From positions 25,178 through 57,177 of the forward strand of contig JAEXCN010000099.1 of assembly GCA_023402175.1 (NCBI GenBank): 32,000 nucleotides of DNA. The letters are read 5' to 3'. Numbering within the stretch: position 1 is the stretch's first letter; each line of letters begins with the position of its first letter. The translations under genes and the position numbers were made by a program. The DNA comes from Pseudomonadota bacterium. Its GTDB lineage: Bacteria; Myxococcota_A; Polyangia; Polyangiales; Polyangiaceae. The notes beneath the pieces are model-generated. The model made no database searches. It worked only from the letters and a program-made list of their open reading frames with translations, and had not been told where the DNA came from. Positions 7,953 to 18,612 of this stretch are shown one piece after another.

Positions 7953-7988
7953 ATAAGCCACGTCGTCGTCGGCCCCGAAGGAACAATC

Positions 7989-8045
7989 GTCAGCTCACCG
8001 GGGTTGAACCGGCAGCCTCTGCTCTCGGCCACGTTGGCGAGCAGT
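7989..8045 (-). pseudogene. truncated tRNA-like remnant (hairpin plus T-arm, ~57 nt)
   Basis: Hairpin CTGCTC...GAGCAG followed by T-arm GCCGG-TTCAACC-CCGGT. No complete cloverleaf and only 5/7 acceptor pairs. Confidence 0.4.
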
Positions 8046-8118
8046 ACGGGGCGAGAGGATCGAACTCTCCTAGCCCTGCTTGTGAGGCAGGTGTCATCAC
8101 CAGATGAGCGGGCCCCGC
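8045..8118 (-). tRNA. tRNA-Val(CAC), 74 nt, degenerate D-stem
   Basis: Acceptor GCGGGGC/GCCCCGT (G1-U72). AC CCTGC-CTCACAA-GCAGG. T GAGAG-TTCGATC-CTCTC. C8, and D-stem GCTC/TGAC mispaired. Confidence 0.65.
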
Positions 8119-8157
8119 GTTCTCCGCCCCGAACCGCAGCTCGGAGCGTTTTGCCGG

Positions 8158-8231
8158 TTCCGGAGGAGGGATTCGCACCCCTCATCCCAGCGGTTCAAAG
8201 CCGCGGATCTTTGCTCTTGGACCACTCCGGA
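8158..8231 (-). tRNA. tRNA-Gln(UUG), 74 nt, non-canonical
   Basis: Acceptor TCCGGAG/CTCCGGA. AC loop CTTTGAA. T-loop TGCGAAT (G55). D-loop CAAGAGCAAA lacks GG. Confidence 0.6.
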
Positions 8232-8285
8232 TCGGGCGCGTCGTGAGCGCTCGTACTCGAGCGCGTCCAGGGCAAGACGCGCCGG

Positions 8286-8354
8286 TCGCTACGGGCAGAG
8301 TCGAACTGCCTGGGCCGCGCTCATGAGGCGCGCCCTCCTCCGAGGAACGCAGCG
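8286..8354 (-). tRNA. tRNA(CAU) Met/Ile2-type, 69 nt, mini D-arm
   Basis: Acceptor CGCTGCG/CGTAGCG. D CCTC-GGAG-GAGG (4-nt loop). AC CGCGC-CTCATGA-GCGCG. T GGCAG-TTCGACT-CTGCC. Confidence 0.65.
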
Positions 8355-8389
8355 ATGCTTGCGTTCTGCACGGATGCGAACGCAGGCGG

Positions 8390-8460
8390 AGCGGTGACCG
8401 AGAATCGCACTCGGATCTCGAGCGTGGCGGGCTCGGGTTCTACTCTTGAACTATCACCGC
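8390..8460 (-). tRNA. tRNA-Gly(GCC), 71 nt, non-canonical
   Basis: Acceptor GCGGTGA/TCACCGC. D GTTC-AAGAGTA-GAAC (no GG). AC CGAGC-CCGCCAC-GCTCG (C33). T CCGAG-TGCGATT-CTCGG (G55). Confidence 0.7.
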
Positions 8461-8566
8461 AGAGGCCGGGCGATGACACCCATCGCGCACGGGTAGAGCG
8501 GCCCTCGCACCGTCCTCATCCTTCGCTACCAGTGAGGTGCCCCGCTCTCTGGCCGTGGGCGGCACG

Positions 8567-8623
8567 TGAAAAGAGCTCGTCCCCAAGTCATGTCCGCTTG
8601 GAGCTGTCCCTCGTGGGGACGAG
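8567..8623 (-). terminator. possible intrinsic terminator downstream of rsr
   Basis: Minus sense: 10-bp GC stem GCTCGTCCCC/GGGGACGAGC followed by TCTTTTC. The apical loop is long (30 nt), so the call is weak. Confidence 0.35.
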
Positions 8624-8705
8624 CAGGTGATCGGCAACGAGGGGCGTGAAGACGGGCCTTCACGGGCATTTGCCGGATGAATTCGATCGAGTCGCAGATC
8701 GACAA

Positions 8706-10313
8706 TCAGATCGAGACGGACTCGATCTCGTGGAGAAAGGCGGAGCCGTCGGCGTCACCTTTCGCGAACGCGGCCACGATCTCGAAGACGGCATCGGAGA
8801 AACCGCCGACGTTCAGCACATCGCTGCGGTTCGCGACCTGCGTGGTCGCGTAGGGCTGCAGGTCGACGAGCACGAGCCTGGCGCGCGGATTGTTCGCACG
8901 GAGTCGCTCCCATTCCTCGGCCATGACGGTCGCTCTCGTCGCGTTCGATGCGCTCGGATCCACAGCGCGTGGCTCGAGCCTGAAGTCCGCCCACGACTGG
9001 TTGTCGGAGACGAAGACGACGAGGTCGGGGGCCATGCCGCGCGCATTGAGCCACCGCAGCGGCGCAGCGCACGAGGTCCCGCCGCTCGGGAGCGACGAGA
9101 GGAGCTCGGCGTTGGTGACCACCGAATCCAGCGCGTTGAGCTGACGACGAAGGGGGACGACGTCGTCCGAGAACGGCAGGACCGTCGCGCGCTCGTTCTT
9201 CCGGAGCAGCGCGGCAGTCGCGAGCGCGGCGACGTCGATGCAACGGACCTTGGAGGAGGCAGTCCCGCGCCGGCCCGTGACTGGAGAGTGCATCGACCCT
9301 GACACGTCCGGACACAGCGCGACGGAGCCGGCGACCTCGGGCACGTTCGCGACGGCGTGCTCGACGGAGCGAGCCAGCGCGTTGACGATCCCCGGCGGCA
9401 TGCTGGTCTCGACCGCGCGATATGCGGCGAGGAGCTGATAGGGGAGTGTGCGCGAGCGCTTCACGGCCTCGGCATCCGAGAGCTTCTCGGCGACGAGATC
9501 GACCATCGCGGGATCGGTGAAGACGCCGTGACGGTAGAGCGTGTTGAGGTTCTGGCGGAGCTGATTGAACGTCATCTTCTTCGCCAGCTCGGTCCAGTGC
9601 TGGGCGCGCAGTGGGAGAGCGGTGAGCATCTCGAACGGCACGTCCGGCAGAGGCTCCCGATCGTTCTTCTTCCAGGCTTCGAATGCCTGGGTGAGCGGCG
9701 GGAGCTTGGAGCAGTCCACGTTCTTTCCGATGAGGTAGCCGTAGAGGGCCTCACGAACGGCATCGGCTTCGCCCTTGTCGTTCCGCGGGGGAGGGCGAAC
9801 CATCTTGATGACGTCCGACATGGACGGGCTCTGACCGATGGACTGGCGGAAGATGGTCTCGGGGCTCTTCGCTGCGAACCATTCGCGGAGCGCTCGCTTC
9901 GGGGCCGAGCCGAACGACTTGCGGCCCGTGACACCGGAGCGAACGATCGCCACGAACGTCCGCAGCATCCGCGCGTCGTCGATGACGCGTGGGAAGACAC
10001 GCAGCATGAGGGCGACATCGCGCGCGGCGAGCCAGGCGACGAGGAACGCCGGGACGTCCTTCATCCTGCCGTGCTTGCGGCAATACACGGCCGTCTTTGC
10101 GACGAGCTCCGGGCTCACCGAGCTCGCGAGTGCCGCGACGTTCTCGAGCTGCTGCTCGTCGGTCGCGTAGAACGTGCCGTGAAACGTGCCGGTGACTGCG
10201 TATTGCGCCAGAGCATGCTCGGGCGGGAGCGCGTATGCCAGGCCGCCGGCTTCGTTGAATGCGTCGGCAACGGGGGCATTTCCTCCGTGACCAAATAGAT
10301 GCTTGTTCGGCAT
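8706..10313 (-). CDS. rsr: Ro60-related protein Rsr (TROVE domain plus vWA/MIDAS domain), 535 aa
   Basis: ATG 10313 preceded by AAGGAGAAACC. N-terminus NEAGGLAYAL...GTFHGTFYATDEQQ (TROVE-like). C-terminus ALCPDVSGSM (DxSxS MIDAS)...GGTSCAAPL...VFVSDNQSW. The track ORF extends to 10988 only because the upstream tRNA genes lack stops. Confidence 0.85.
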   Translation of the reverse strand: MPNKHLFGHGGNAPVADAFNEAGGLAYALPPEHALAQYAVTGTFHGTFYATDEQQLENVAALASSVSPELVAKTAVYCRKHGRMKDVPAFLVAWLAARDVALMLRVFPRVIDDARMLRTFVAIVRSGVTGRKSFGSAPKRALREWFAAKSPETIFRQSIGQSPSMSDVIKMVRPPPRNDKGEADAVREALYGYLIGKNVDCSKLPPLTQAFEAWKKNDREPLPDVPFEMLTALPLRAQHWTELAKKMTFNQLRQNLNTLYRHGVFTDPAMVDLVAEKLSDAEAVKRSRTLPYQLLAAYRAVETSMPPGIVNALARSVEHAVANVPEVAGSVALCPDVSGSMHSPVTGRRGTASSKVRCIDVAALATAALLRKNERATVLPFSDDVVPLRRQLNALDSVVTNAELLSSLPSGGTSCAAPLRWLNARGMAPDLVVFVSDNQSWADFRLEPRAVDPSASNATRATVMAEEWERLRANNPRARLVLVDLQPYATTQVANRSDVLNVGGFSDAVFEIVAAFAKGDADGSAFLHEIESVSI

Positions 10314-10403
10314 GGTTTCTCCTTTCCGAGCTCGTGTGAGGTGTCGGTCGTGCGCTTGCTCCGGCGCACGATCGTGTGTTGTTCCGGTTTCGAAGAGATG
10401 AGG

Positions 10404-10477
10404 CGTTCCCGACGGGATTCGAACCCGTGTTCCTGGCTTGAGAGACCAGAGTCCTTGGCCGTCTAGACGACGGGAAC
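10404..10477 (-). tRNA. tRNA-Glu(CUC), 74 nt, canonical
   Basis: GTTCCCG TC GTC-TAGACGGCCAAG-GAC T CTGGT-CTCTCAA-GCCAG GAAC ACGGG-TTCGAAT-CCCGT CGGGAAC G. Confidence 0.9.
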
Positions 10478-10519
10478 CGACGAGGAGCGCGCGGAGGCGC
10501 GGGCGCAGTCGAAAGATGA

Positions 10520-10647
10520 AGGTCGTCCGAGTGTCTCGAGCATCGGTGTTGACTTGGGAGTCGAACCCAAAACGGTCAGCTTCTGAGGCTGGTGTCCTTC
10601 CATTGGACGAGTCGAGTGCGTGTGAGCTCGGGTCGAGCGGACGACCT
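10520..10647 (-). ncRNA. Y-RNA-like candidate: tRNA-like domain (anticodon CAG, short variable loop, weak acceptor) clamped by a long terminal stem module
   Basis: 10-bp H1 AGGTCGTCCG/CGGACGACCT, 7x7 internal loop (CTCGACC / AGACACT), 5-bp H2 CGAGC/GCTCG, then TCACACGC. This leads into D GTCC-AATGGAA-GGAC, AC CCAGC-CTCAGAA-GCTGA and T TTGGG-TTCGACT-CCCAA. The same module occurs in units A-D. Lies about 200 nt upstream of rsr. Confidence 0.5.
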
Positions 10648-10721
10648 GGATGCAGCGGCTGGAGTCGCACCAGCGTCTCGAGCTTATGAGGCTCGCGGGG
10701 TGGCTCCTCCCCCACGCTGCA
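10647..10721 (-). tRNA. tRNA(CAU) Met/Ile2-type, 72 nt plus encoded CCA
   Basis: Acceptor TGCAGCG/CGCTGCA. D GGGG-AGGAGCCA-CCCC. AC CGAGC-CTCATAA-GCTCG. T GCTGG-TGCGACT-CCAGC (G55). T73-CCA. Confidence 0.75.
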
Positions 10722-10760
10722 ATGAGTCTCCGGATCGAGAGTGTTCTCGCGTCTGGAGGG

Positions 10761-10830
10761 CACCTTCGCCGGGAGTCGAACCCGGAGAACGAGCTTCGGA
10801 GGCTCGGCCCTGATTCCGCAGGACGAAGGT
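10761..10830 (-). tRNA. tRNA-Arg(CCG), 70 nt
   Basis: Acceptor ACCTTCG/CGAAGGT. AC CGAGC-CTCCGAA-GCTCG. T CCGGG-TTCGACT-CCCGG. D-arm CCTG-CGGAAT-CAGG shifted by 1 nt. Confidence 0.7.
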
Positions 10831-10834
10831 AGGG

Positions 10835-10923
10835 AGGAAGAAAGAGGTCTCGAACCCCACACGCTCTTCCGAGCGTGCGCATTGCTTTCGAGGCAAGCCC
10901 GGCGCCCAGCCGGTTTTTCATCC
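10835..10923 (-). tRNA. tRNA-Ser(CGA), class II, 89 nt
   Basis: Acceptor GGATGAA/TTCTTCC (one U-U). AAA linker. D CCGG-CTGGGCG-CCGG. AC loop CTCGAAA. Variable arm ACGCTC-GGAA-GAGCGT. T-loop TTCGAGA. Confidence 0.75.
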
Positions 10924-10930
10924 ATGTCAG

Positions 10931-11003
10931 TGGTCGGTGAGGGAATCGAACCCCCTACGCAGAGCTTTTCAAACTCCCGCTCTACCAATTGAGCTTACCG
11001 ACC
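10931..11003 (-). tRNA. tRNA-Phe(GAA), 73 nt, canonical
   Basis: GGTCGGT AA GCTC-AATTGGTA-GAGC G GGAGT-TTGAAAA-GCTCT GCGTA GGGGG-TTCGATT-CCCTC ACCGACC A. Confidence 0.9.
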
Positions 11004-11015
11004 GTTTCAACGTGC

Positions 11016-11090
11016 TGGCCTCCCCGCCAGGAATCGAACCTGGACAACTGGCTTCGTAGACCGGTGCGTGGGATCCACCACGACGAGGAG
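11016..11090 (-). tRNA. tRNA-Arg(ACG), 72 nt plus encoded CCA
   Basis: Acceptor CTCCTCG/CGGGGAG. AC loop CTACGAA (stem has a C-A mismatch). T CCAGG-TTCGATT-CCTGG. 5-bp shifted D-stem CGTGG/CCACG. Confidence 0.7.
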
Positions 11091-11094
11091 AGGG

Positions 11095-11182
11095 AGGAAG
11101 GCAGAGGACTCGAACCTCACGCGGCTCGACACCGCGCGAATCGCGTTCCAGACGATCTCCGCCCCCGGCGGATTTGCCTTCC
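11095..11182 (-). tRNA. tRNA-Ser(GGA), class II, 88 nt
   Basis: Acceptor GGAAGGC/GCCTTCC. AAA linker. D TCCG-CCGGGGG-CGGA. AC ATCGT-CTGGAAC-GCGAT. Variable arm CGCGG...CCGCG. T-loop TTCGAGT. Paralog of Ser(CGA). Confidence 0.75.
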
Positions 11183-11216
11183 GGGTATTGCAATGCGCCT
11201 GCTCATGCGAGCGCGG

Positions 11217-11291
11217 TCAGGACGGCAGGATTCGAACCTGCGCTCTCCAGTCCCCCAGACTGGCGCTTTTGCCGGGCTAAGCTACGCCCTG
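11217..11291 (-). tRNA. tRNA-Pro(GGG), 75 nt
   Basis: CAGGGCG TA GCTT-AGCCCGGCAA-AAGC G CCAGT-CTGGGGG-ACTGG AGAGC GCAGG-TTCGAAT-CCTGC CGTCCTG A. Confidence 0.85.
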
Positions 11292-11390
11292 AGGCTTTCA
11301 CGTAGTCGTGGAAATCAAGAATAAAGTGGTCCAGTTTCACGTCATGGACCAGGACGCGGGAGCTCTGTCGACGCTCACGCGATCGACGCC

Positions 11391-11924
11391 TCATGCAGAG
11401 AGCGGAGCCGAAGCCGTGTAGCCGTCGCAGTACGGCTGCCAGACATCCGGCAGATCACCCTCATCGAGACGGATCGGCGGCACGGCGGGCAGCCAGGTCG
11501 GCTTCTTCGGCTGCCGCAGCAGCTTCATGCCGGCCTGCTCAGGCGTGCGGCTCCCCTTGCGATCGTTGCATGCGTAGCAGGAGGTGACGATGTTCTCCCA
11601 AACCGTCTTTCCTCCCTGCACGCGCGGGATGACGTGGTCGTAGTTGAGGCCTCTGATCGGCTTCTTGTCACCGCAGTACTGGCAGCGGAACCTGTCGCGC
11701 GTAAAGACGTTCATCCGGGAGAAGCGGACCGACTGCTTCGTCGACACCGACCCCTTCTTCAGGCGGACCACGGCGGGCGTCATCATCGCGATGCTCGGGG
11801 CACGGAGCTCCGCGTCCCAGGTCTCGATGACTTCGACCTTGCCGAGATAAGCCAGCACGACGGCGCGCTGCCAGGGAATGATCTTGTGAGGCGCCATCCA
11901 TGGAGTCAGCATCAGCGTTTGCAT
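11391..11924 (-). CDS. HNH endonuclease (177 aa)
   Basis: CQYCG...DHVIPRVQGGKTVWENIVTSCYACNDRKG (HNH with Cys4 zinc motif). N-terminus IIPWQRAVVLAYLGKVEVIE is typical of the small stand-alone HNH family. Same strand as the tRNA array. Confidence 0.85.
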   Translation of the reverse strand: MQTLMLTPWMAPHKIIPWQRAVVLAYLGKVEVIETWDAELRAPSIAMMTPAVVRLKKGSVSTKQSVRFSRMNVFTRDRFRCQYCGDKKPIRGLNYDHVIPRVQGGKTVWENIVTSCYACNDRKGSRTPEQAGMKLLRQPKKPTWLPAVPPIRLDEGDLPDVWQPYCDGYTASAPLSA

Positions 11925-12064
11925 GGGTCACCGTTTCTTTCTCGTTTTCAAGGCTCGATCTCCTTTTCGGAGGGATGAAGAAGTCGTGCGGGATGCACGA
12001 CGACGGGCGTCATCAGAGATAGCGAACGGACGGTGCGCTGATGTTGCTCGGATATGGCGAGTAG

Positions 12065-12149
12065 TGTCACCGGAGGGAGTCGAACCCTCAAACTCGCAAC
12101 GGAGCCCAGCATCTCGGGCTGGCGTGTATTCCAGTTCCACCACGGTGAC
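12065..12149 (-). tRNA. tRNA-Leu(GAG), class II, 85 nt
   Basis: Acceptor GTCACCG/CGGTGAC, A73. 3-bp D-stem. AC CCAGC-CCGAGAT-GCTGG (C33). ~16-nt variable arm. T GAGGG-TTCGACT-CCCTC. Confidence 0.8.
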
Positions 12150-12186
12150 GTGTCGCGTCCGTCTCGCGCTCGGCGATCTTGGACGT

Positions 12187-12266
12187 TGGTACCGACGGAG
12201 GGATTCGAACCCTCACAACACACAGTTTCTGAGACTGCGGCCTCTACCAGATTGGGCCACGTCGGC
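12187..12266 (-). tRNA. tRNA with Leu anticodon CAG but only a 7-nt variable loop (77 nt plus CCA)
   Basis: GCCGACG TG GCC-CAATCTGGTAGA-GGC C GCAGT-CTCAGAA-ACTGT GTGTTGT GAGGG-TTCGAAT-CCCTC CGTCGGT A CCA. Leu-like D-arm but no long variable arm. Confidence 0.65.
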
Positions 12267-12298
12267 ATGAAGCGCGATCCGCAGGGCGGCTTGCGCGG

Positions 12299-12373
12299 TC
12301 TGTGCAGGAGGATTCGAACCTCCAATCCCTCCGACCCGAACGGAGTGCTCTAGCCAGGTTGAGCCATGCACAG
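12299..12373 (-). tRNA. tRNA-Pro(CGG), 75 nt, canonical
   Basis: CTGTGCA TG GCTC-AACCTGGCTA-GAGC A CTCCG-TTCGGGT-CGGAG GGATT GGAGG-TTCGAAT-CCTCC TGCACAG A (C1-G72, A73). Confidence 0.9.
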
Positions 12374-12412
12374 AGAAACGACGATGATCGACGGGAGCTC
12401 GAGCCATCGCCG

Positions 12413-12484
12413 TGGTGGACCAGTCGGGAGTCGCACCCGAACCATCTGCTTGCAAGACAGACGTCTCCCCTCGGAGACAAGCCC
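12413..12484 (-). tRNA. tRNA-Ala(UGC), 69 nt plus CCA, mini D-arm
   Basis: Acceptor GGGCTTG/CTGGTCC with G3-U70. D CTCC-GAGG-GGAG (4-nt loop). AC TCTGT-CTTGCAA-GCAGA. T TCGGG-TGCGACT-CCCGA (G55). Confidence 0.7.
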
Positions 12485-12523
12485 ATGTTGAATCACTGCA
12501 TGACGGCGGGACTGGCCCGCCGG

Positions 12524-12596
12524 TGCGGCGCGCAGGGATCGCACCTGCCTCCTCCTGCTCGTCATGCAGGCGCAGTCGCTAGACTGCCAGCGCCGC
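12524..12596 (-). tRNA. tRNA-Val(GAC), 73 nt
   Basis: GCGGCGC TG GCAG-TCTAGCGA-CTGC G CCTGC-ATGACGA-GCAGG AGGAG GCAGG-TGCGATC-CCTGC GCGCCGC A. G55, and no GG in the D-loop. Confidence 0.75.
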
Positions 12597-12619
12597 TCTT
12601 CTCGTCGAAGAGAGCTTCG

Positions 12620-12692
12620 TGGATCACCTGCGAATCGAACGCAGTGCGGGCTCCTTATCAGAGAGTCCAGGGTGACCAACCCGTCGTGATCC
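12620..12692 (-). tRNA. tRNA-Ile(GAU), 73 nt
   Basis: GGATCAC GA CGGG-TTGGTCAC-CCTG G ACTCT-CTGATAA-GGAGC CCGCA CTGCG-TTCGATT-CGCAG GTGATCC A. Confidence 0.8.
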
Positions 12693-12715
12693 GTCGTTTA
12701 TGTCTGGTGAACGAT

Positions 12716-12787
12716 TGGAGAGCCGAGAGGGAGTTGAACCCTCGCGCGCCGTTTTGCAGACGACGATCCTCCCCGGAGAATCGGCTC
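12716..12787 (-). tRNA. tRNA-Cys(GCA), 69 nt plus CCA, mini D-arm
   Basis: Acceptor GAGCCGA/TCGGCTC. D TCC-GGGGA-GGA. AC GTCGT-CTGCAAA-ACGGC. T GAGGG-TTCAACT-CCCTC. T73-CCA. Confidence 0.65.
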
Positions 12788-12852
12788 GAAGAAGTGGGCG
12801 CAGTTCCCTGTTGGCCGACGTCACGTGCGCGTCGGACGTTGGGGCTGCGCGG

Positions 12853-12923
12853 AGCGGGCAGAGGGAATCGCACCCTCATTGTCAGTTTGGAAGACTGCGG
12901 TCCTACTGTTGGACGATACCCGC
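12853..12923 (-). tRNA. tRNA-Gly(UCC), 71 nt
   Basis: GCGGGTA TC GTCC-AACAGTA-GGAC C GCAGT-CTTCCAA-ACTGA CAAT GAGGG-TGCGATT-CCCTC TGCCCGC T. G55, and no GG in the D-loop. Confidence 0.75.
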
Positions 12924-13119
12924 AGGATATGAATCGAAGTATCGCAAGCCTCGACGAGATTGACGAAGACGTAGGTGATCGGCAGCTCGCGCTGCCGGGC
13001 ACCATGATGCACGAGCGAGCAGCAGCCGCTCTTGCATCATCGGCACATTGAAGCCGCCCGCGAAGGCAGCTTCCGTTCGCCCCGCAAGGAGAGAGTCCAC
13101 CGAGGTGGTCTCCTGAGAA

Positions 13120-13225
13120 GCGCTCGGCTGGAGTCCGCGGAGCGCTCTCTGACTCTCCCTATGCCATCGCTAGGTCGGTCGCCCGACGTTCGCTACCTTA
13201 GGACCGTTATAGTTACGGATGTAGT
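13120..13225 (-). ncRNA. 23S rRNA domain IV (H69-H71) look-alike fragment inside a ~400-nt non-tRNA spacer
   Basis: Minus sense 13218..13189 reads CCGTAACTATAACGGTCCTAAGGTAGCGAA, which as I recall it is the universally conserved 23S segment and contains the I-CeuI site. It is followed by GTCGGG..CCGACCT..CGATGGC..GAGAGTCAGAGA..CCGCGG, patches colinear with 23S H70/H71 but with the loops deleted. Confidence 0.6.
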
Positions 13226-13322
13226 CCTCGTCGGCATTCGAGACCGACGCTGATGTTGCTCGTGTCGTGTGAGATCTGTTGTTCGTAATTTTCGAGATCG
13301 CTGCCCAGGGATGGGGCAGCGC

Positions 13323-13398
13323 TGGTGGAACCGGCCGGACTCGCACCGGCAACCTCCTCGATGCCATCGAGGCGCTCTCCTGGCTGAGCTACGGCCCC
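13323..13398 (-). tRNA. tRNA-Ala(GGC), 73 nt plus CCA
   Basis: GGGGCCG TA GCTC-AGCCAGGA-GAGC G CCTCG-ATGGCAT-CGAGG AGGTT GCCGG-TGCGAGT-CCGGC CGGTTCC A CCA. G3-U70, G55. Confidence 0.85.
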
Positions 13399-13425
13399 TT
13401 TCGTTCGGATGTCCTTCGCGTGTGG

Positions 13426-13499
13426 TGGTGGAGCGACGGGGAATCGCACCCCGATCCCTGCAATGCGAATGCAGCGTTCTCCTGTTGAACTATCGCCCC
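13426..13499 (-). tRNA. tRNA-Ala(CGC), 71 nt plus CCA
   Basis: GGGGCGA TA GTTC-AACAGGA-GAAC G CTGCA-TTCGCAT-TGCAG GGAT CGGGG-TGCGATT-CCCCG TCGCTCC A CCA. G3-U70, G55. Confidence 0.8.
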
Positions 13500-13533
13500 A
13501 GGGTCCCCACGTGGTGGGGAGCAGACAAGTCGG

Positions 13534-13604
13534 CAGGCCGCGAAGGAATCGAACCCTCTCTCCGGGGGTTGGAATCCCGGCTGGTCACCATGACTCTACG
13601 GCCT
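13534..13604 (-). tRNA. tRNA-Trp(CCA), 71 nt, aberrant D-arm
   Basis: Acceptor AGGCCGT/GCGGCCT, G73. AC CGGGA-TTCCAAC-CCCCG (A31-C39 mismatch). T GAGGG-TTCGATT-CCTTC. The D region pairs only as GTC-ATGGT-GAC. Confidence 0.65.
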
Positions 13605-13631
13605 GTGCTCTCGAGCGCGGTGCGCTTGCAG

Positions 13632-13703
13632 CGCCTCGTAGGGGAATCGAACCCCTCTCGCCCCATAGACAGTGGGGTTGCGACGCCAGTCGCATCACGA
13701 GGC
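13632..13703 (-). tRNA. tRNA-Asp(GUC), 72 nt
   Basis: GCCTCGT GA TGCG-ACTGGCGT-CGCA A CCCCA-CTGTCTA-TGGGG CGAG AGGGG-TTCGATT-CCCCT ACGAGGC G. Position 37 is U. Confidence 0.75.
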
Positions 13704-13727
13704 AATGAACGTCGATATTCGTGGCGG

Positions 13728-13799
13728 TGTCCTCGGCAGGAGTCGAACCCGCGTCTGCCGGTTTAGAAGACCGGCGCCTCTCCGCTCGGCCACGAGGAC
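13728..13799 (-). tRNA. tRNA-Arg(UCU), 72 nt
   Basis: GTCCTCG TG GCC-GAGCGGAGA-GGC G CCGGT-CTTCTAA-ACCGG CAGAC GCGGG-TTCGACT-CCTGC CGAGGAC A. The D-arm looks like a class II type. Confidence 0.75.
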
Positions 13800-13820
13800 G
13801 TTCTTGCTCTCCTGGCTCGG

Positions 13821-13885
13821 CGTCCCCGGCAGGAGTCGAACCTGCGTCGACCGGATTAGGAGCCTATCCGTTCGGCCAGGATGAC
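13821..13885 (-). pseudogene. tRNA-like paralog of Arg(UCU) with ~7-nt deletion in the anticodon arm (65 nt)
   Basis: GTCATCC TG GCC-GAACGGATA-GGC T CC..TAATCCGG TCGAC GCAGG-TTCGACT-CCTGC CGGGGAC G. Two acceptor mismatches and no 5-7-5 anticodon arm. Confidence 0.5.
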
Positions 13886-13929
13886 AGAGGCTGTCTGCGC
13901 AGGCGAAGAGTGGATCGGTGCGCGGCCGG

Positions 13930-14002
13930 GGTAGCGTACGGGAATCGCACCCGCCTCCACTGAGTCACAATCAGCCCTCGTCACTAGACGAGTAACGCTA
14001 CC
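13930..14002 (-). tRNA. tRNA-His(GUG) with encoded G-1, 73 nt
   Basis: G-1 GTAGCGT TA CTCG-TCTAGTGA-CGAG G GCTGA-TTGTGAC-TCAGT GGAG GCGGG-TGCGATT-CCCGT ACGCTAC C73. G55. Confidence 0.8.
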
Positions 14003-14084
14003 ATGTATTCAGATGCTCATTCGAGTCGGTGATGTCAACCTCGAGCCTGAATTTCGTCTGCCGTTGATAGGCACTTCGTCGAAC

Positions 14085-14159
14085 TGGTGCTCCCGATCGG
14101 AATCGAACCGATACCTTCCGCTTGAAAGGCGGAGATCCTGACCACTAGATGACGGGAGC
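14085..14159 (-). tRNA. tRNA-Glu(UUC), 72 nt plus CCA
   Basis: GCTCCCG TC ATC-TAGTGGTCAG-GAT C TCCGC-CTTTCAA-GCGGA AGGT ATCGG-TTCGATT-CCGAT CGGGAGC A CCA. Confidence 0.85.
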
Positions 14160-14165
14160 AAACGT

Positions 14166-14308
14166 GTCGTCCGAGTGAGAAGGTCGTTGTCATGTGAATG
14201 ACGGGTTGACTGCCCGTTGCCTTACCACTTGGCTACGATGGCGAAACGCCAGCGGCTGGATTCGAACCAGCGATTCGATTGCGTGTAGGACCTGTTCGAT
14301 CGGACGAC
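14166..14308 (-). ncRNA. permuted tRNA-like ncRNA unit A (Y-RNA/YrlA-like candidate)
   Basis: Minus-sense order: H1 GTCGTCCG, loop ATCGAAC, H2 AGGTC, CTACACGCAATCGAATC. Then T-arm GCTGG-TTCGAAT-CCAGC, acceptor 3' strand CGCTGGC, cap GTTTC, acceptor 5' strand GCCATCG, TA. Then D GCC-AAGTGGTAA-GGC, hairpin ACGGG-CAGTCAA-CCCGT, H2' GACCT, loop TCTCACT, H1' CGGACGAC. Confidence 0.5.
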
Positions 14309-14457
14309 GACGAGGGGGCCGTAGAGCGCCGACGATGATCGGCGCGGTAAAGGAGCGCCTCGTCAGGTGCGTGCCTGCGAGGCGTGGAGCTCAGAGGCGA
14401 GCTCGGCAAGCTCGGCGGCGTCCGGTGCGTTGGACGCGCGGGCTGCTGAAGAAAAGT

Positions 14458-14627
14458 CCTCACCCGAGTGAAAAAGCCGGTTGGATGGTTCCATCATTCA
14501 AGATGAGTGCCTTTACCAGTTAGGCTATCGCTGCGTACGATTTGCGGTGGCGGGCACCGTGAGCAGCGAGTCGGATTCGAACCGACATTTCCTCGATTGC
14601 GTGTAGGGCATCTTCGGTCGGGTGAGG
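14458..14627 (-). ncRNA. permuted tRNA-like ncRNA unit B
   Basis: H1 CCTCACCCG/CGGGTGAGG, loops ACCGAAG / TTTCACT, H2 ATGCC/GGCTT, CTACACGCAAT. T GTCGG-TTCGAAT-CCGAC. Acceptor TCGCTGC, 28-nt cap, GCAGCGA. D GCC-TAACTGGTAAA-GGC. Hairpin TCATC-TTGAAT-GATGG. Confidence 0.5.
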
Positions 14628-14663
14628 GAAATCGGAATGCGCTTAGCTCGCTGCGCGAGCATC

Positions 14664-14744
14664 TGGTCCCCCGTGATGGAATCGAACCACCTACCGAAAG
14701 GCACCGGGTTACGACCGGCTGCTCCGCCATGGAGCGAACGAGGG
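14664..14744 (-). tRNA. tRNA-Tyr(GUA), 78 nt plus CCA
   Basis: CCCTCGT TC GCTC-CATGGCG-GAGC A GCCGG-TCGTAAC-CCGGT GCCTTTCGGTA GGTGG-TTCGATT-CCATC ACGGGGG A CCA. C33, 11-nt variable region. Confidence 0.75.
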
Positions 14745-14752
14745 AAGAGGGG

Positions 14753-14909
14753 CACCCGAGTGAGAAAGCCGTGTTGTCGTCTGAATGGACGAGCGCCTTA
14801 CCATTAGGCCACGCTGGAATAGGTGTTTTGGAGCTCGATGGCTCACGGCTCCAGCGGACGGAATCGAACCGTCGTGTCTCATTGCGTGTAGGGCATTCCC
14901 TGGCGGGTG
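14753..14909 (-). ncRNA. permuted tRNA-like ncRNA unit C
   Basis: H1 CACCCG/CGGGTG, loops CCAGGGA / TCTCACT, H2 ATGCC/GGCTT, CTACACGCAAT. T GACGG-TTCGATT-CCGTC. Acceptor CGCTGGA, 31-nt cap, TCCAGCG (identical to the tRNA-Asn acceptor). D GCC-TAATGGTAA-GGC. Hairpin TCGTC-CATTCA-GACGA. Confidence 0.5.
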
Positions 14910-14913
14910 ACGG

Positions 14914-14985
14914 AGCCCACGTCCGGAGTCGAACCGGATCCTCCCGTGTACGAGACGGGTGCTCGACCATTCGAGCTGCGCGGGC
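14914..14985 (-). tRNA. tRNA-Thr(CGU), 72 nt, canonical
   Basis: GCCCGCG CA GCTC-GAATGGTC-GAGC A CCCGT-CTCGTAC-ACGGG AGGA TCCGG-TTCGACT-CCGGA CGTGGGC T. Confidence 0.9.
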
Positions 14986-14988
14986 AGG

Positions 14989-15042
14989 GGCCCCATGTAC
15001 TCATGGGGAACGAAAGAGGCGGGCCCCATGTACTCATGGGGA
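14989..15042. repeat. two direct copies of a 21-bp hairpin element (GGCCCCATGTACTCATGGGGA), period 33 bp
   Basis: Copies at 14989-15009 and 15022-15042. Each contains the inverted repeat CCCCATG-tact-CATGGGG. A related CCATG-ttgct-CATGG occurs at about 15486-15500. Confidence 0.7.
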
Positions 15043-15118
15043 AAAGAAGGTGCTCGCGGTGCGCGCGTCGCCTGGGTGGGAGGCGCGCGCGCCGGCGCGA
15101 GCGGGTGAGAAGAATGTC

Positions 15119-15264
15119 TCGTCCGAGTGGAGAAGCCGGTGCAAGTGCTCGTATGCGAAACGAGTGCCTTCCCATTAGGCTAGCAGCCCTGTGCCTTGCG
15201 GCTGGTGGACCACGTTGGAGTCGAACCAACATGTTGTGCGTGTAAGGCTTGTCCGAGCGGACGA
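15119..15264 (-). ncRNA. permuted tRNA-like ncRNA unit D (tRNA-Ala-type body)
   Basis: H1 TCGTCCG/CGGACGA, loops CTCGGAC / CTCCACT, H2 AAGCC/GGCTT, TTACACGCACAACAT. T GTTGG-TTCGACT-CCAAC. GTGGTCC-A-CCA, 13-nt linker GCCGCAAGGCACA, then GGGCTGC (7 pairs including G3-U70). TA, D GCC-TAATGGGAA-GGC, hairpin CTCGT-TTCGCAT-ACGAG (CGC). Confidence 0.55.
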
Positions 15265-15269
15265 AGAAG

Positions 15270-15341
15270 CTCCAGCGGAAGGAATCGAACCTTCGAAGGA
15301 CCGGTTAACGGCCGGCTGCCTGACCATTCGGCTTCGCTGGA
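15270..15341 (-). tRNA. tRNA-Asn(GUU), 72 nt
   Basis: TCCAGCG AA GCC-GAATGGTCA-GGC A GCCGG-CCGTTAA-CCGGT CCTTC GAAGG-TTCGATT-CCTTC CGCTGGA G. C33, U1-A72, G73. Confidence 0.8.
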
Positions 15342-15521
15342 ATACGTGCTCGTCGCGTTCGTGCCGCGCTGCTGCCGTCTCGACGAACCCGATCTCTTCC
15401 GAGGCAGGACGACGAAGCGGTCAGCGCGCACGAGACGCGACGAGCCTTGGCGCCAAGTTGTCATAGAGCGAGGGACCTCGAGCTCCCCATGTTGCTCATG
15501 GAGAACGAGACCGAGAGTCCT

Positions 15522-15595
15522 TGGTTCCGAGCACAGGATTCGAACCTGTCTTCCTGGTTTCAGAGGCCAGTGTCCTGCCGCTAGACGAGCCCGGA
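15522..15595 (-). tRNA. tRNA-Gln(CUG) with Glu-type body, 71 nt plus CCA
   Basis: TCCGGGC TC GTC-TAGCGGCAG-GAC A CTGGC-CTCTGAA-ACCAG GAAG ACAGG-TTCGAAT-CCTGT GCTCGGA A CCA. Close in body to Glu(CUC) at 10404. Confidence 0.75.
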
Positions 15596-15653
15596 GCAGG
15601 CGGCGGCGTGCGAAGGTCGCAAGTCGCCGGTGCCACGTCGTTCGACGCAGCAG

Positions 15654-15726
15654 TAGGTCCGGAGGGAATCGAACCCTCACCACCCCGGGTAAGAGCCGGG
15701 TGCGCTTCCGATTGCGCTACGGACCT
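15654..15726 (-). tRNA. tRNA-Lys(CUU), 73 nt, canonical
   Basis: AGGTCCG TA GCGC-AATCGGAA-GCGC A CCCGG-CTCTTAC-CCGGG GTGGT GAGGG-TTCGATT-CCCTC CGGACCT A. Confidence 0.9.
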
Positions 15727-15788
15727 GTATTTGGCGCGATGCGACGAACCGGGGCAGCACTGCCCGCAGCCGCACGCATCGCGGTGAG

Positions 15789-15861
15789 TGGGACGCGAGG
15801 GAGTCGAACCCTCATCCCTCGGCTTAAAAGGCCGGTGCTCGGCCGATTGAGCTAGCGCCCC
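15789..15861 (-). tRNA. tRNA-Lys(UUU), 73 nt, canonical
   Basis: GGGGCGC TA GCTC-AATCGGCC-GAGC A CCGGC-CTTTTAA-GCCGA GGGAT GAGGG-TTCGACT-CCCTC GCGTCCC A. First gene of the array in the direction of transcription. Confidence 0.9.
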
Positions 15862-16172
15862 GCAGTTTCGACAAACAATCGCGTTTGAACAGACGCGAGC
15901 GGCTCAGATGCCAAGCTTGAGAAACATGATTGATTCGTCCAGATGAAGTTAGGTTGATGGACGCCGTCTCGAGGACGCGCCCGTGTCTGGGTGCCGATGT
16001 AGGTCGGACGCTCGACGCTGGGACGAGCCGATCCGTGCGGCTTCGGGCCGCGATCTGGGACCGACCTCGACGAGGTGGAGAGGCCGAGGATGTCGACGCG
16101 CCCGGTACGCCCAAGCCCCTTTGCGGGGCACGGCGAAACGCACGAACGTCGGGACGAGCTAACCCGAGGCCC

Positions 16173-16212
16173 AGAAACAAGAAAGGCCACCTCGGGATAT
16201 CCCGGGCGGCCT
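16173..16212 (-). terminator. intrinsic terminator (minus strand) upstream of the tRNA array
   Basis: Minus sense: hairpin AGGCCGCC-CGGGATATCCCGA-GGTGGCCT followed by TTTCTTGTTTCT. Sits 40 nt after the stop of the small ORF 16254..16541. Confidence 0.55.
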
Positions 16213-16253
16213 CTGCGAACGGCTCCGAACGATGGAGACGATACGAGGGACCG

Positions 16254-16541
16254 CTAGGGGTCGCCTTCCTCCTGCTTGGCGCTCGAATCGAGCGGACGAG
16301 GGGCGGCGAGCATGCGGCTACCGGCCTGGTCGAGGCCAGAGAGACCGCCGAAGAGCGACAGAGAGACCGAGCTCACGTTGGAGTTGTGGCTATTCAGCCC
16401 GACGGCGGCCCCGCCAAAGGCAGGGCGACGCCACGCGCGATGCAGCCGTCCCTCGGACGCGAGATACGCCACGCCGGTGCGCGGGAGCGCCTCGGTCGTC
16501 GTCGTCCTCTTGTCTTGGAAGGAGAGAATCACGCGGAACAT
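16254..16541 (-). CDS. small hypothetical protein (95 aa)
   Basis: High GC3 and followed by a good terminator, but the RBS is poor (GGAG 13 nt from the ATG) and no family is recognisable. Confidence 0.3.
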   Translation of the reverse strand: MFRVILSFQDKRTTTTEALPRTGVAYLASEGRLHRAWRRPAFGGAAVGLNSHNSNVSSVSLSLFGGLSGLDQAGSRMLAAPRPLDSSAKQEEGDP

Positions 16542-17052
16542 GCACGCCCGGGATCTCCGGACGCGCCTCCATTGGTGGAGAGGTTGCTTCTGTAGACGTT
16601 CCAGGCAGGAGCGTCATTCAAGCTATAGCTCGCGATGTCGGACGACGCAAGGATCTAAATCGAAAAAGTGATCGCCGCGGAGCACTCGACGCAGACGGAT
16701 CAAACGCGGTTGTTGGGCAACGCGGGCAGAATCCATCGATCTTCTGCGACTCGGAAGCTGCGAGCGACCAGCGATGGGCTGGGCCGGTGACCTACGCGAC
16801 GAGCCTGGCGCGTCGCGCGCCTCGCGTTCGTCGGGATCGTTCACGTGTACGGTCCGCCAGCTCCGCCCGAGACGAATCTGACCTGTCAGCGATGAGAAGA
16901 CGACAACAATGCTGGCGCTGGGGGGATGTCTTGGCGTTCACCCGCTGGCCCGCGGGCCGGCCCGATCTGGCCCGGGCCAGGGGGCGCGATGCGTAACTCA
17001 TCGGAATGACGGCAACGAGGTGCAGGCATGCCCATCGCAATGCTGCCCCGTC

Positions 17053-18612
17053 ATGCTCGCCATCGCGCATAGCGCCGTTCTTGCGGGGATCGAGTCTTCA
17101 CCGGTTCGCGTCGAGATACAGGCCGAACGAGGCATTCCGACATTCGAGCTCGTCGGGCTCGCCGAGGCGGCCGTCCGGGAGAGCCGTGTGCGGGTGAAGA
17201 GCGCGCTCGCGGGAGTAGGCGTCGACATCAGCGAGTTCCGAGTCACGGTCAACCTCGCGCCTGCCGACGTGAAGAAGAGCGGCAGCTCCTTCGACCTGGC
17301 GATTGCGCTCGGGACGTTGGTCGCGCTCGGCGTTCTTCCCGAAGGAACGCTCGACGACGTGCTCGTCCTCGGAGAGCTGTCGCTCAACGGTAACGTCCAG
17401 AACCTGCGCGGCGTGGTCGCGCATCTGCTCGGCGCGAAGAAGCGCGGAGTCGCACGCGCGATCGTACCGTTCGCGAACGAGCGCGAAGCGGCACTGGTCG
17501 ATGGTGTCGAGGTCGAGCTGGCGTCGACGCTCGCCGAGGTCGTCGATGCGCTCTGCGGGCGTGCATCTCTCCGGACCCCGCGCCCCGCGCCGGCGGACGT
17601 CGTTCGACGCCCGGTCGACGATCTCGCCGACGTGCGCGGCCAACACGGCGCGCGACGTGCGCTCGAGATCGCCGCTTCCGGTGGGCACAACCTCCTCATG
17701 ATGGGACCTCCCGGCGCAGGAAAGACGATGCTCGCGCGCCGCCTGCCCGGCATCCTTCCGCTGCTCACGCGCGAAGAGGCCCTCGAGGTGATCGCGATCC
17801 ACGGCGTTGCCGGGCTGGTCGGTAGCGCGTCGAGCGTTGCCGTCGAGCGGCCCTTCCGCGCTCCTCACCATACCGCGAGCGACGTCGCGCTCGTGGGCGG
17901 CGGCGAGCACGCGCGGCCAGGTGAGGTCAGTCTCGCGCATCACGGCGTCCTCTTCCTCGACGAGCTCGCGGAGCTACGGCGTACCGCGCTCGAAGCCCTG
18001 CGCCAGCCGCTCGAGGACGGGACCGTGACGATCTGTCGGATGCGCATGACACTGACGTTTCCCGCTCGTCCGATGCTCATCGGAGCGACGAACCCGTGTC
18101 CCTGCGGAAACTTCGGCGACGGGACCAATCGGTGCAATTGCAGTCACGAGGCGATCCGCTCGTATCGCCGGAGACTGAGCGGTCCGCTGCTCGACCGTGT
18201 GGATCTGCACGTCGTTCTTCCGCGCGTCGATCTCCGGGAGCTGCACGCGACCGGTGGCGGTGAGCCGAGCGCCGCGGTCCGAGCGCGTGTCGAGAAGGCG
18301 CGTGCGGTCCAGCATGCTCGCTTTCGCGCCGGAGAGGTCGCGGCTCAGACCAACGCGCATCTCGCCCAGCGCGACGTCGAGCGCATCTGCAAGCTCGATA
18401 CGAAAGGGCGAGCGCTTCTCGCACAGGCCGTCGAGCGACGGGGCCTATCGGCGCGTGCGTACGGCAAGGTTCTCCGCGTCGCACGGACGATCGCGGACAT
18501 GGACGGAGCGACGGCGATTGCGCCGGGGCACGTCGTCGAAGCCGTCGCGGGTCGCGTGCTCGATCGCGATCAGTCGAACGGCCGCCCAATTTCCGAGACC
18601 GACGCGGCCTGA
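17053..18612 (+). CDS. comM: YifB/ComM-family Mg-chelatase-like AAA+ ATPase
   Basis: ATG 17053 gives [21 protein letters not shown], a typical N-terminus (Lon-protease-like ChlI domain). Walker [23 protein letters not shown], and a C-terminal Mg_chelatase_C region. Confidence 0.9.

Follow-up and report, generated by a model that had tools for sequence, protein, structure and literature searches.

A predicted Y RNA-like element with a miniature 23S rRNA look-alike in the tRNA array of a Polyangiaceae bacterium

Why should a spacer between tRNA genes carry 30 nucleotides (nt) of 23S rRNA without a single change, and is such a sequence a remnant of an rRNA gene, a target site for a nuclease, or part of an RNA with a role of its own? 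We address these questions in a 32,000-nt stretch of a Polyangiaceae assembly (a metagenome scaffold, contig JAEXCN010000099.1, positions 25,178 to 57,177; hereafter the window, with a G+C content of ~66%), where the minus strand of a spacer in a tRNA array holds a look-alike of 23S rRNA helices 69 to 71 (H69-H71) upstream of rsr, the gene for the Ro60 ortholog Rsr. The element is an rRNA mimic under selection, and its anatomy and gene context make it quite likely that it belongs to the bacterial Y RNAs as a new subclass, in which a predicted rRNA-mimic effector domain takes the place of the tRNA mimic carried by the Y RNA YrlA. Positions of all features are collected in Table 1.

An exact 23S segment on the minus strand had been noticed when the window was first read from its letters and open reading frames (ORFs) alone (the sequence-only reading), and this observation holds. 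The 30-mer CCGTAACTATAACGGTCCTAAGGTAGCGAA (13218..13189) equals Escherichia coli 23S 1908-1937, comprising most of H69 and the strand toward H71, and is 100% identical to 23S rRNA across all 5426 complete E. coli genomes; by simple arithmetic, an exact 30-mer is expected by chance ~6e-14 times in 64 kb of two-strand sequence. Equally, the I-CeuI target named in that reading is there in full, with all 26 bp of TAACTATAACGGTCCTAAGGTAGCGA present at 13215..13190 on the minus strand (site sequence as printed in PMC7104398). The H69 look-alike keeps the same 7-nt loop as 23S H69 and forms a hairpin in the centroid fold, and this loop is retained in the relatives that we call closed-type; the 13-mer CUAAGGUAGCGAA that follows is invariant across a 15-member alignment, the loci in both cases spanning 35-67% GC. 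Further 3', the 1938-1944 loop that precedes H71 in 23S is cut down to a single C, the 7-nt H71 loop GUAAGUU is swapped for the GNRA tetraloop GCGA, and the alignment to 23S of the 120 nt that follow the 30-mer outscores those of 994 of 1000 shuffled sequences.

The surroundings of this core are not ribosomal. No tRNA gene is called in the spacer (12924-13322), and the spacer does not contain an rrl gene, both as had been stated: the proposed check against the Rfam large-subunit (LSU) rRNA models gave no match there, and the flanks form the Y-RNA-type stem described below. At E <= 10, Rfam returned for the spacer only istR, permuted tmRNA and SNORA17 at 13-19 bits, far under their thresholds, which we take as chance, and the spacer DNA found no similar sequence among annotated phages and plasmids. 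The interval originally marked, 13120-13225, does contain a real look-alike but covers just part of a 299-nt element that extends from ~12947 to 13245.

Conservation in related arrays had been proposed as a check, and it is found. Six further genomes, fetched via Rsr homologs (68-82% identical to the Rsr of the window), carry the element in the same spacer just upstream of a tRNA-Gly gene, giving a syntenic set of seven copies. Common to all seven are the Y stem, H69 (shortened in two), the 13-mer, a covarying H71 and AGCGAYGGC, together with the variable hairpin A, GCGGGGCGAACGG, the covarying hairpin B, CAAUGUGCCG and variable terminal hairpins. The 13-mer itself is kept in five of the seven, with its last base changed in locus L077 and three substitutions in L076. 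The H71 stem occurs in this lineage as GUCGG/CCGAC, AUGGG/CCCAU, CUCCG/CGGAG and GCGGG/CCCGC, and its first pair is seen across the family as GC, CG, UA, AU, UG and GU; the proposed 23S counterpart GTCGGG-cga-CCGACCT is H71 with a GNRA-capped loop, whose pairing covaries. CGATGGC (13169..13163, minus strand), which had been read as colinear with 23S CGAAUGGC, falls in columns invariant in all seven copies: AGCGA and GGC of CUAGCGAUGGCA do not vary in this set, and AGCGA is kept in most of the wider family.

Not every patch of proposed 23S similarity fared as well. GAGAGTCAGAGA (13157..13146) and CCGCGG (13140..13135) had been listed as further matches, but they belong to a hairpin of variable sequence in this lineage; no relative conserves CCGCGG, and GAGAGTC is only one strand of a covarying stem. 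We likewise dropped GGUGCCCGG as a counterpart of 23S UGCCCGG, possibly a chance likeness, as the region is not conserved in the six syntenic relatives. GCGGGGCGAACGG resembles 23S 2046-2061 (GCGGCAAGACGGAAAG) in colinear position and is conserved in the lineage, a resemblance for which homology and chance are not separable.

The rRNA-like part is enclosed by a two-tier stem of the kind that closes Y RNAs. The predicted 299-nt RNA has a minimum free energy (MFE) of -150.3 kcal/mol (z = -5.52, with 0 of 200 shuffles equally stable), and its centroid fold includes H69 and H71 as well as the outer and inner stems. The outer stem of 7 bp shows compensatory changes at three pairs in the seven syntenic copies and the inner stem of 9 bp shows both-side changes at three pairs among relatives (both by RNAalifold), and both tiers covary in the seven-copy and in the family alignments. 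On the 5' side, CGAAUGCC contains CGAAUGC, which is the Rfam YrlA consensus CgaAUGC and occupies columns invariant in all seven copies; the CGAA or GNCGAA motif is the likely Ro60 contact in known Y RNAs (PMC4201824; PMC12135203). The inner stem is followed by UACAU (13219-13223), so that its last C together with UAC yields CUAC, the 'YUAY' motif of YrlA (PMC4201824), and the 3' internal loop reads CACUCG or CACUUG in relatives and in two YrlA-like units of the window. Taken as a whole, the scaffold reads GGUCUCGAAUGCC-GACGAGGA-CUACAU ... GUCUUCGUC-AAUCUCG-UCGAGGC in the window, against CgaAUGCuuggGgaaCUAc ... AaAcUuG in the Rfam YrlA consensus.

By the operational definition of Chen et al. 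2014, bacterial Y RNAs have their ends paired in a long stem with (GN)CGAA(N)G near the 5' end, and they lie less than ~4 kb from a Ro60 ortholog on the same strand. The ends of the element are paired in this way, with the motif reading CUCGAAUG, and its 3' end (12947) lies 2.6 kb from the start of rsr (10313), which is downstream on the same minus strand. The inner tRNA-like domain of the YrlA subfamily (T arm, acceptor-like stem-loop and D arm) is absent, the cargo being the H69-H71 look-alike, with no tRNA or YrlA match in 12947-13245. The combined pattern CGAA-N(3-16)-YUAYA occurs at three sites in the window, all in Y-like units, where composition predicts ~3.5, so this count by itself is no evidence.

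Members of the same family occur well beyond the myxobacterial lineage. A pattern for the shortened junction (GCGAA, 0-5 nt, GUCGGG) led to five non-rRNA loci in planctomycete metagenome-assembled genomes (MAGs), at least two of them (L003 and L005) in tRNA arrays. A scan of metagenomes gave 58 loci, of which 14 are true members and the remainder are real rrl variants or chance matches, and a viral scan gave three members on IMG/VR contigs of 149, 204 and 75 kb, with tRNA arrays on L083 and L089 and Ro60 genes on L086 and L089. Including the window, the family totals ~29 loci of 35-67% G+C from myxobacterial Labilithrix-like genomes, planctomycete MAGs, other metagenome contigs and viral contigs. 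At the five planctomycete loci the look-alike sits inside one recurrent clamp, 5'-YRACUGCC-N4-GGGAnUACAU ... CUUCGUYRR-3', and the same clamp holds other cargos in neighboring units, one of which (at L003) matches the tRNA-like domain of Rfam YrlA with 42.1 bits (E = 5e-8). This clamp aligns to the YrlA stem module: its 5' half comprises outer stem, AUGC loop, inner stem and CUAC, and its 3' half AaAcUuG and then the outer stem. The window element has the same clamp.

A Ro60-family gene lies within 3.5 kb, always co-oriented, at 18 of the 26 loci examined, and the other eight are short contigs or contig ends; every locus with enough sequence (18/18) therefore has a co-oriented Ro60-family gene. 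Eleven of these 18 loci had been found by DNA pattern alone, without reference to Ro60, and at several the RNA ends ~150-200 nt before the Ro60 start codon. Divergent ORFs beside some of the RNAs are Ro60 homologs by profile-profile comparison only (hhalign, 98.7% probability, E = 4e-16, 377 columns), Pfam and PDB sequence searches with them being negative or weak.

Most members arrange the cargo in one order: it opens with the 3' strand of H69 or the entire H69 hairpin, continues with CUAAGGUAGCGAA, a GNGA-looped H71, (C)UAGCGA and a hairpin-capped 4-bp stub, and ends with GU-GNN-CA-CU, a short hairpin opening with a G.U pair, A-AG-NNC and GGCCG. As judged from these sequences, the cargo of most members appears to be a circularly permuted miniature of the 23S H67-H68-H69-H70-H71 junction, in which the H67/H68-like part lies 3' of H71. 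In this view the short hairpin reproduces the GCCGG/CCGGU base of H68, GNN[CA]CU/AGNNC corresponding to GCC[CG]GU/ACGGC of E. coli with the same bulge positions, and the capped stub stands in the place of H67. The members divide by their H69. Closed-type members, including the window, have an intact H69 hairpin with the rRNA loop sequence, their Y stem being inserted between H68 and H69. Open-type members build the H69 stem in trans from CGGUC and the terminal GGCCG (with the compensatory variants CAGUC/GACUG, CGGUU/AGCCG and GGGAC/GUCCU), which means that the Y stem replaces the H69 loop.

The shared structure was assessed in two alignments, each compared with slid controls. In a plain MAFFT alignment of 15 members, to which the structure was transferred from one member, 80.7% of cells are paired, against 30-44% in slid controls, and double changes occur at 37 of 51 pairs (0 of 500 shuffles as high). 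In a model-fitted alignment of 24 members, which leans toward the structure used for fitting, the paired cells amount to 84.6% against 32-46% in controls, double changes preserving the pairing are seen at 42 of 46 pairs, and the covariation score is 0.486 against at most 0.139. A covariance model, R1, built from 14 members that all lie outside the window lineage, matches the window at 13041-13248 (minus strand) with 67.4 bits (E = 4e-19), the six syntenic copies with 41.6-74.3 bits and the three viral copies with 44.7-80.4 bits. Genuine 23S rRNAs match R1 where H69-H71 lie, but with no more than 19-28 bits (24.1 bits for E. coli, at locus positions 1875-2086), so that the family is related to this part of 23S and clearly distinct from it. 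The lowest R1 score, 41.6 bits, belongs to L076 (1732-2042), which has a perfect H69 hairpin with CAUAAUGUAGCGGAA as its substituted 13-mer, and which may be a decaying copy.

These data bear directly on the possibility that a passive, decaying fragment of rrl was captured and has no function. The 30-mer is identical to rRNA, and illegitimate recombination could supply such a sequence, but there is no LSU match around the 30-mer, the element holds the same position in seven syntenic genomes, with Rsr proteins 68-100% identical to that of the window, and recurs in other phyla and phages, GNRA caps replace the rRNA loops, and the segment order appears permuted in most members. A 23S pseudogene would show colinear LSU similarity beyond the core, which the window lacks, and neutral decay would leave helices no better kept than loops, whereas here the helices are the better kept and covary across phyla. 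A captured fragment, one of the explanations first offered, is hence the least credible of all those we considered.

A relic homing site for the HNH or another endonuclease had also been suggested, and we considered selection on DNA as a homing site, relic or active, for the HNH protein of the array or for an I-CeuI-like enzyme. The exact 26-bp I-CeuI site and an HNH_5 gene only 1.0 kb away, which co-occurs with the element at several related loci, are what such an explanation would draw on. The DNA site is not conserved, however: its left half is missing from open-type members, and it carries several substitutions in L079 and L080, one in L078 and some in L076, while compensatory changes preserve the RNA helices, which marks selection acting on the RNA. 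A Pfam scan of the large ORFs gave no LAGLIDADG gene or intron, with the HNH_5 gene as the sole nuclease gene. The HNH protein is syntenic in all six Labilithrix-like relatives with sequence upstream of rsr and 74-94% identical, tracking rsr (68-82%) in the manner of a housekeeping gene and unlike a selfish mobile gene; it appears to accompany the Rsr/tRNA-array module as a stable partner rather than as a mobile homing gene. We therefore regard a homing site as very improbable.

The closest known relatives are the YrlA-type Y RNAs (RF02553; Chen et al. 2014, PMC4201824), which are likewise co-oriented near a Ro60/Rsr gene, close their 5' and 3' ends in a two-tier stem with CGAAUGC...CUAC and ACUYG motifs, join a Ro-binding stem to an inner mimic of a translation-machinery RNA, occur in bacteria and phages, and can be present several to a locus; their tRNA mimic is the precedent for a translation-RNA mimic on a Y RNA. 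In YrlA, however, the inner domain copies the tRNA T arm, acceptor stem and D arm, where the new family copies 23S H67 and H69-H71. YrlA measures ~80-130 nt as compared to 170-310 nt here (L003, with 171 nt, and L059, with 188 nt, being short members), RF02553 does not detect the new family, and most of the new members, unlike YrlA, lie inside tRNA arrays. Our working model derives from Yrn1 of Deinococcus radiodurans and its RYPER complex (Rsr-Y RNA-PNPase), in which the stem binds Rsr and the other module tethers the effector and gates the Ro60 cavity (PMC4201824; PMC12135203); that module is a large internal loop, in contrast to the predicted folded rRNA-like junction here.

The model for the cargo itself is the domain IV junction H67-H71 of 23S (E. 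coli ~1830-1975). The window shares 30 identical nt with it and has the H69 stem, H70 and H71 in the same order, and most members add a stub for the base of H68, with the same G.U closing pair, 2-nt 5' bulge and 3' A bulge, and an H67-like stub. They differ from the 23S junction in that most appear circularly permuted, with the Y stem replacing the H69 loop or entering between H68 and H69, and in that they lack or cap the distal H68 and the 1938-1944 and H71 loops.

We propose that the RNA is co-transcribed with the tRNA array, as no promoter or terminator of its own was found in 12700-13500, and that it is probably released by processing of the flanking tRNAs. Its ends would pair into the two-tier stem where YrlA-type Y RNAs have their Ro60/Rsr binding site, and this stem would hold a folded mini 23S domain IV made of the H69 hairpin, the 1925-1937 strand, H70 and the GNRA-capped H71, to which most members would add stubs for H67 and H68 in a circularly permuted rRNA order. 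By analogy with Y RNAs that tether or gate Ro60, the rRNA-like domain may act as an effector module, recognized by a factor that normally reads this part of 23S or the 50S interface, whereby Rsr and a partner 3'-5' exoribonuclease would be brought to that target, or the target would be titrated.

Which factor this might be is suggested by the helices that were kept. In the ribosome, H71 forms bridge B3. The other retained helices take part in bridges B2a (H69-h44), B2b (H68 base-h24) and B2c (H67-h27), and HflX binds the cleft between H69 and H71 (PMC11040002). Because the retained helices are bridge elements and include the HflX-bound cleft, candidate partners are (i) readers of the H69/H71 cleft or of a naked domain IV junction, such as HflX-type, RRF-type and rRNA modification or assembly factors, and (ii) the 30S platform/h44 surface that touches these helices in bridges B2a, B2b, B2c and B3. 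Since open-type members lack the H69 loop and their Y stem projects from the H69 stem, a protein partner is somewhat more likely than a universal native-like docking onto 30S. A report from 2026 that human Y3 RNA binds and inhibits ribosomes under stress (PMC13501136) offers an earlier case of a Y RNA linked to the ribosome and makes a ribosome-directed Y RNA plausible; Y3 is eukaryotic and has no sequence relationship to the family, and the abstract of that report does not mention rRNA mimicry.

A mimic of this kind could also work without Rsr, as a free decoy or sponge in which the mini-domain IV titrates a factor or toxin that targets 23S H69-H71, for example as ribosome protection by a phage or island. 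The presence of the family in tRNA arrays and on 75-204 kb viral contigs is compatible with such a role, the universally conserved rRNA nucleotides stay invariant, and HflX-like factors do bind the H69/H71 cleft (PMC11040002). A decoy leaves unexplained, however, why the closing stem should carry Y-RNA motifs and why the element should be strictly co-oriented with Ro60 genes (18/18). Moreover, every member has lost the 1938-1944 loop (UUCCU), the known site of MazF-mt6/mt3 cleavage in this part of 23S. We consider a free decoy improbable, though it overlaps with the titration branch of the Y RNA model.

Alternatively, the RNA could be a substrate of Rsr in place of a Y RNA, that is, a misfolded-rRNA-like piece that Ro60 threads to exonucleases, for example as a means of regulating or occupying quality control. 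Misfolded rRNA precursors are indeed bound by Ro60, and both the maturation of 23S and the decay of rRNA involve Rsr (PMC4201824), but the ends of the element are locked in a long covarying stem with Y-RNA motifs that leaves no free 3' tail, and compensatory changes keep the mimic helices, which indicates selection for good folding and not for misfolding. Such a substrate seems still less probable to us than a free decoy. The earlier suggestion of an rRNA mimic or decoy, or an Rsr-directed substrate, therefore stands insofar as the mimic is tied to Rsr, and gives way where it spoke of a misfolded substrate or a free decoy, as the anatomy of the Y-RNA stem points to an Rsr ligand.

Several observations speak against the assignment as a Y RNA with an H67-H71 mimic and have to be set beside those in its favor. 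RF02553 gave no match on 12800-13450 even at E <= 10, its gathering threshold (69 bits) thus not being reached; the first G of the GNCGAAN0-1G motif is a C in the window element; and tRNA genes and the HNH gene intervene between the RNA and rsr. In the window lineage the H67/H68 part has no 23S sequence similarity and carries lineage-conserved motifs instead. Open-type members lack the H69 loop, and mimicry of bridge B2a cannot be a universal function. When nhmmer is run against the complete E. coli 23S, significance is reached by the core block alone (E = 1.5e-10), and the best local Smith-Waterman match of the 3' part falls at 1827-1847 in seven of 14 members and at 1892-1911 in five of 14; the H67/H68 similarity is not individually significant against the whole 23S, so we claim H67/H68 mimicry only for topology and match location.

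So far, two effector domains are known for bacterial Ro60-Y RNA particles, a PNPase-binding loop and the tRNA mimic of YrlA. A second widespread mimic domain, of the 23S junction at the center of the subunit interface, would link Ro60 ribonucleoproteins (RNPs) directly to the ribosome, with testable partners in 30S subunits, HflX or RRF, and the factors that modify or assemble domain IV. The module travels with tRNA arrays, the HNH protein and Rsr on large phage contigs and chromosomal islands, a pattern suggestive of a mobile cassette for 'translation maintenance or takeover'. The family, which is absent from Rfam 15, would also offer structural work a natural minimal H67-H71 junction fold. 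A bolder and doubtful extension of the Y RNA model is that this class displays a miniature 50S bridge core (H67, H68 base, H69 and H71) to aim Ro60/Rsr and its exoribonuclease at free 30S or at HflX/RRF, or to block these, in which case, with YrlA in the same loci, Ro60 RNPs would be programmable by translation-mimic cartridges; if true, this would amount to RNA-level mimicry of the ribosomal subunit interface as a targeting device. Our search of open-access full text for any link of Y RNA or Ro60 to rRNA mimicry, helix 69 or tRNA arrays yielded only work on the tRNA mimic and unrelated papers, so that a prior description beyond that scope is possible.

Table 1. Positions of the element, its parts and associated genes (window coordinates, except where a locus is named)
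Feature	Position	Strand	Basis or remark
Whole predicted RNA, 299 nt: Y-RNA-type closing stem and rRNA-like cargo	~12947..13245	minus	fold and covariance model
Outer stem, 5' strand GUCUCGA	13238..13244	minus	pairs with 12948-12954
CGAAUGCC: CGAA motif and 5' internal loop of putative Ro60-binding module	13233..13240	minus	YrlA likeness
Inner stem, 5' strand GACGAGGAC	13224..13232	minus	pairs with 12962-12970
H69 look-alike hairpin CCGUAACUAUAACGG	13204..13218	minus	identical to E. coli 23S 1908-1922
CUAAGGUAGCGAA (13-mer)	13189..13201	minus	equals 23S 1925-1937, H69-H71 junction including H70 5' strand
H71 look-alike GUCGG-GCGA-CCGAC	13174..13187	minus	99-100% paired, covaries among relatives
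CUAGCGAUGGCA	13162..13173	minus	counterpart of 23S 1962-1975 (CUGCACGAAUGGCG): H70 3' strand and start of H67 stub
Hairpin A, caps H67-like stub, holds GAGAGTCAGAGA and CCGCGG	13086..13161	minus	variable in lineage
GCGGGGCGAACGG, subtype-conserved motif	13073..13085	minus	invariant in 7/7 syntenic copies, on viral contig L083
Hairpin B, in topological place of H68 stub	13051..13072	minus	stem covaries
CAAUGUGCCGAU, second subtype-conserved motif	13039..13050	minus	AUGUGC invariant 7/7; CAAUGUGCCGG on viral contig L083
Two window-specific hairpins: GAUGAUGCA...UGCAUCAU; GGUG-CC-CGGCAGC-GCGA-GCUGCCG-AU-CACC	12974..13041	minus	MFE and centroid folds
Inner stem, 3' strand GUCUUCGUC	12962-12970	minus	pairs with GACGAGGAC
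3' internal loop AAUCUCG	12955-12961	minus	corresponds to YrlA consensus AaAcUuG
Outer stem, 3' strand UCGAGGC	12948..12954	minus	pairs with 13238-13244
YrlA-like unit	14470-14630	minus	T arm, acceptor-like stem-loop and D arm inside Y-type stem
YrlA-like unit	14170-14310	minus	weak Rfam YrlA match at 14219-14273, 21.6 bits, E = 0.04
tRNA array	8044-15861	minus	31 tRNA genes
rsr (Ro60 ortholog, 535 aa), inside tRNA array	8709-10313	minus	Pfam TROVE and vWA_Ro60
HNH_5 gene, 177 aa, inside tRNA array	11391-11924	minus	Pfam
Divergent Ro60-like protein	L024 2375-3958	minus	
Divergent Ro60-like protein	L012 3-1379	minus	
Divergent Ro60-like protein	L040 2275-3705	minus	
Divergent Ro60-like protein	L044 2228-3658	plus	
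Divergent Ro60-like protein	L045 918-2072	plus	

In the cargo of the window, hairpins A and B sit topologically where the other subtype has the H67 cap and the H68 stub. The stem of hairpin A, GGGAGAGUC/GACUCUCUCC, is kept by covariation while its length ranges from ~20 to 75 nt among relatives, and hairpin B shows AU/GC/CG and GC/AU/CG at two of its pairs. RNAalifold pairs GGCG of GCGGGGCGAACGG with UGCC of 13039-13050, bases that never vary and hence give no covariation signal, and the region 12974..13041 is conserved among relatives in neither sequence nor length. Because GCGGGGCGAACGG and CAAUGUGCCGG recur on the 149-kb viral contig L083, the window lineage is a subtype of the family and not debris.

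The two YrlA-like units of the window lie in the largest remaining tRNA-free gap of the array, and both have the outer stem, CGAA...CUACAC and a 3' CACUCG followed by the outer stem. Together with the rRNA-like element they make three Y-RNA-like units upstream of rsr in one array. A third kind of unit, with the same clamp and a short cargo, is found at L003 (2972-3055), L006 (~4133-4262) and L081 (~10460-10540). In L003 and L081 this cargo is a GCAA-capped hairpin (UGCCGCAAGGCG/A), in L006 it is longer, and no mimicry is recognized in it; these short-cargo units may be YrlB-like. Homologs of the HNH protein stand near Ro60 and an rRNA-like Y RNA at L035, L005, L025 and on the viral contig L089, and L081 has Rsr and an HNH homolog without the rRNA mimic.

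The Rsr of the window aligns over its full length with D. radiodurans Rsr (PDB 2NVO, E = 4e-16), belongs to PHROG 850 ('RNA-binding protein'), and is closest, among proteins with a named source, to those of Labilithrix sp. and Polyangiaceae MAGs. PADLOC found nothing for Rsr and only generic HNH-domain matches for the HNH protein. By Pfam, the array is flanked by genes for a ComM-like ATPase and RecA and by AHSA1 and peptidase M18 genes. At gathering thresholds, Rfam 15 detects only tRNAs, and no other family, in the whole window. Its tRNA and tRNA-Sec models match at four places without an ARAGORN gene, all on the minus strand, two above the gathering threshold (12416-12484, 31.7 bits; 15270-15341, 52 bits) and two below it (10836-10923 and 13821-13885), and the array may contain a few tRNAs or tRNA-like RNAs beyond the 31 listed.

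The block of tRNA array, HNH gene and rsr (window 6900-18600) occupies the same chromosomal slot in the Labilithrix-like loci L074 and L076-L080, with a comM-like gene on one side (visible at four of the six fetched syntenic loci) and AHSA1, peptidase M18, FGE-sulfatase and Ser/Thr kinase genes on the other. The 75-kb IMG/VR viral contig L089 likewise unites a tRNA array with Ro60, HNH and Y RNA, and this distribution suggests that the block is a domesticated phage-derived cassette.

Among the wider loci, the element of L059 had nothing similar among plasmids, and that of L010 matched phages only through 33-nt matches to 23S rRNA sequence within phage records. A first viral pattern scan returned L068-L073, six copies of one unrelated sequence that we rejected as family members. 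Together with L063 these make seven contigs (IMG/VR and metagenome) that share ...GCUGGUCCUAAGGUAGCGAAUCUCGUCGGGUCAGC... with the 23S-like 13-mer, have no GNRA-capped H71 and no visible Y-RNA clamp, and score 15.9 bits with R1 (L063); they may represent a different kind of rRNA-like element. The divergent Ro60-like proteins, a family that Pfam TROVE misses, share the N-terminus EQDLRLxLLNTLLTTPHR, and at L024, where the protein has only a sub-threshold vWA_Ro60 match (E = 1.6e-4), a separate vWA-domain protein follows.

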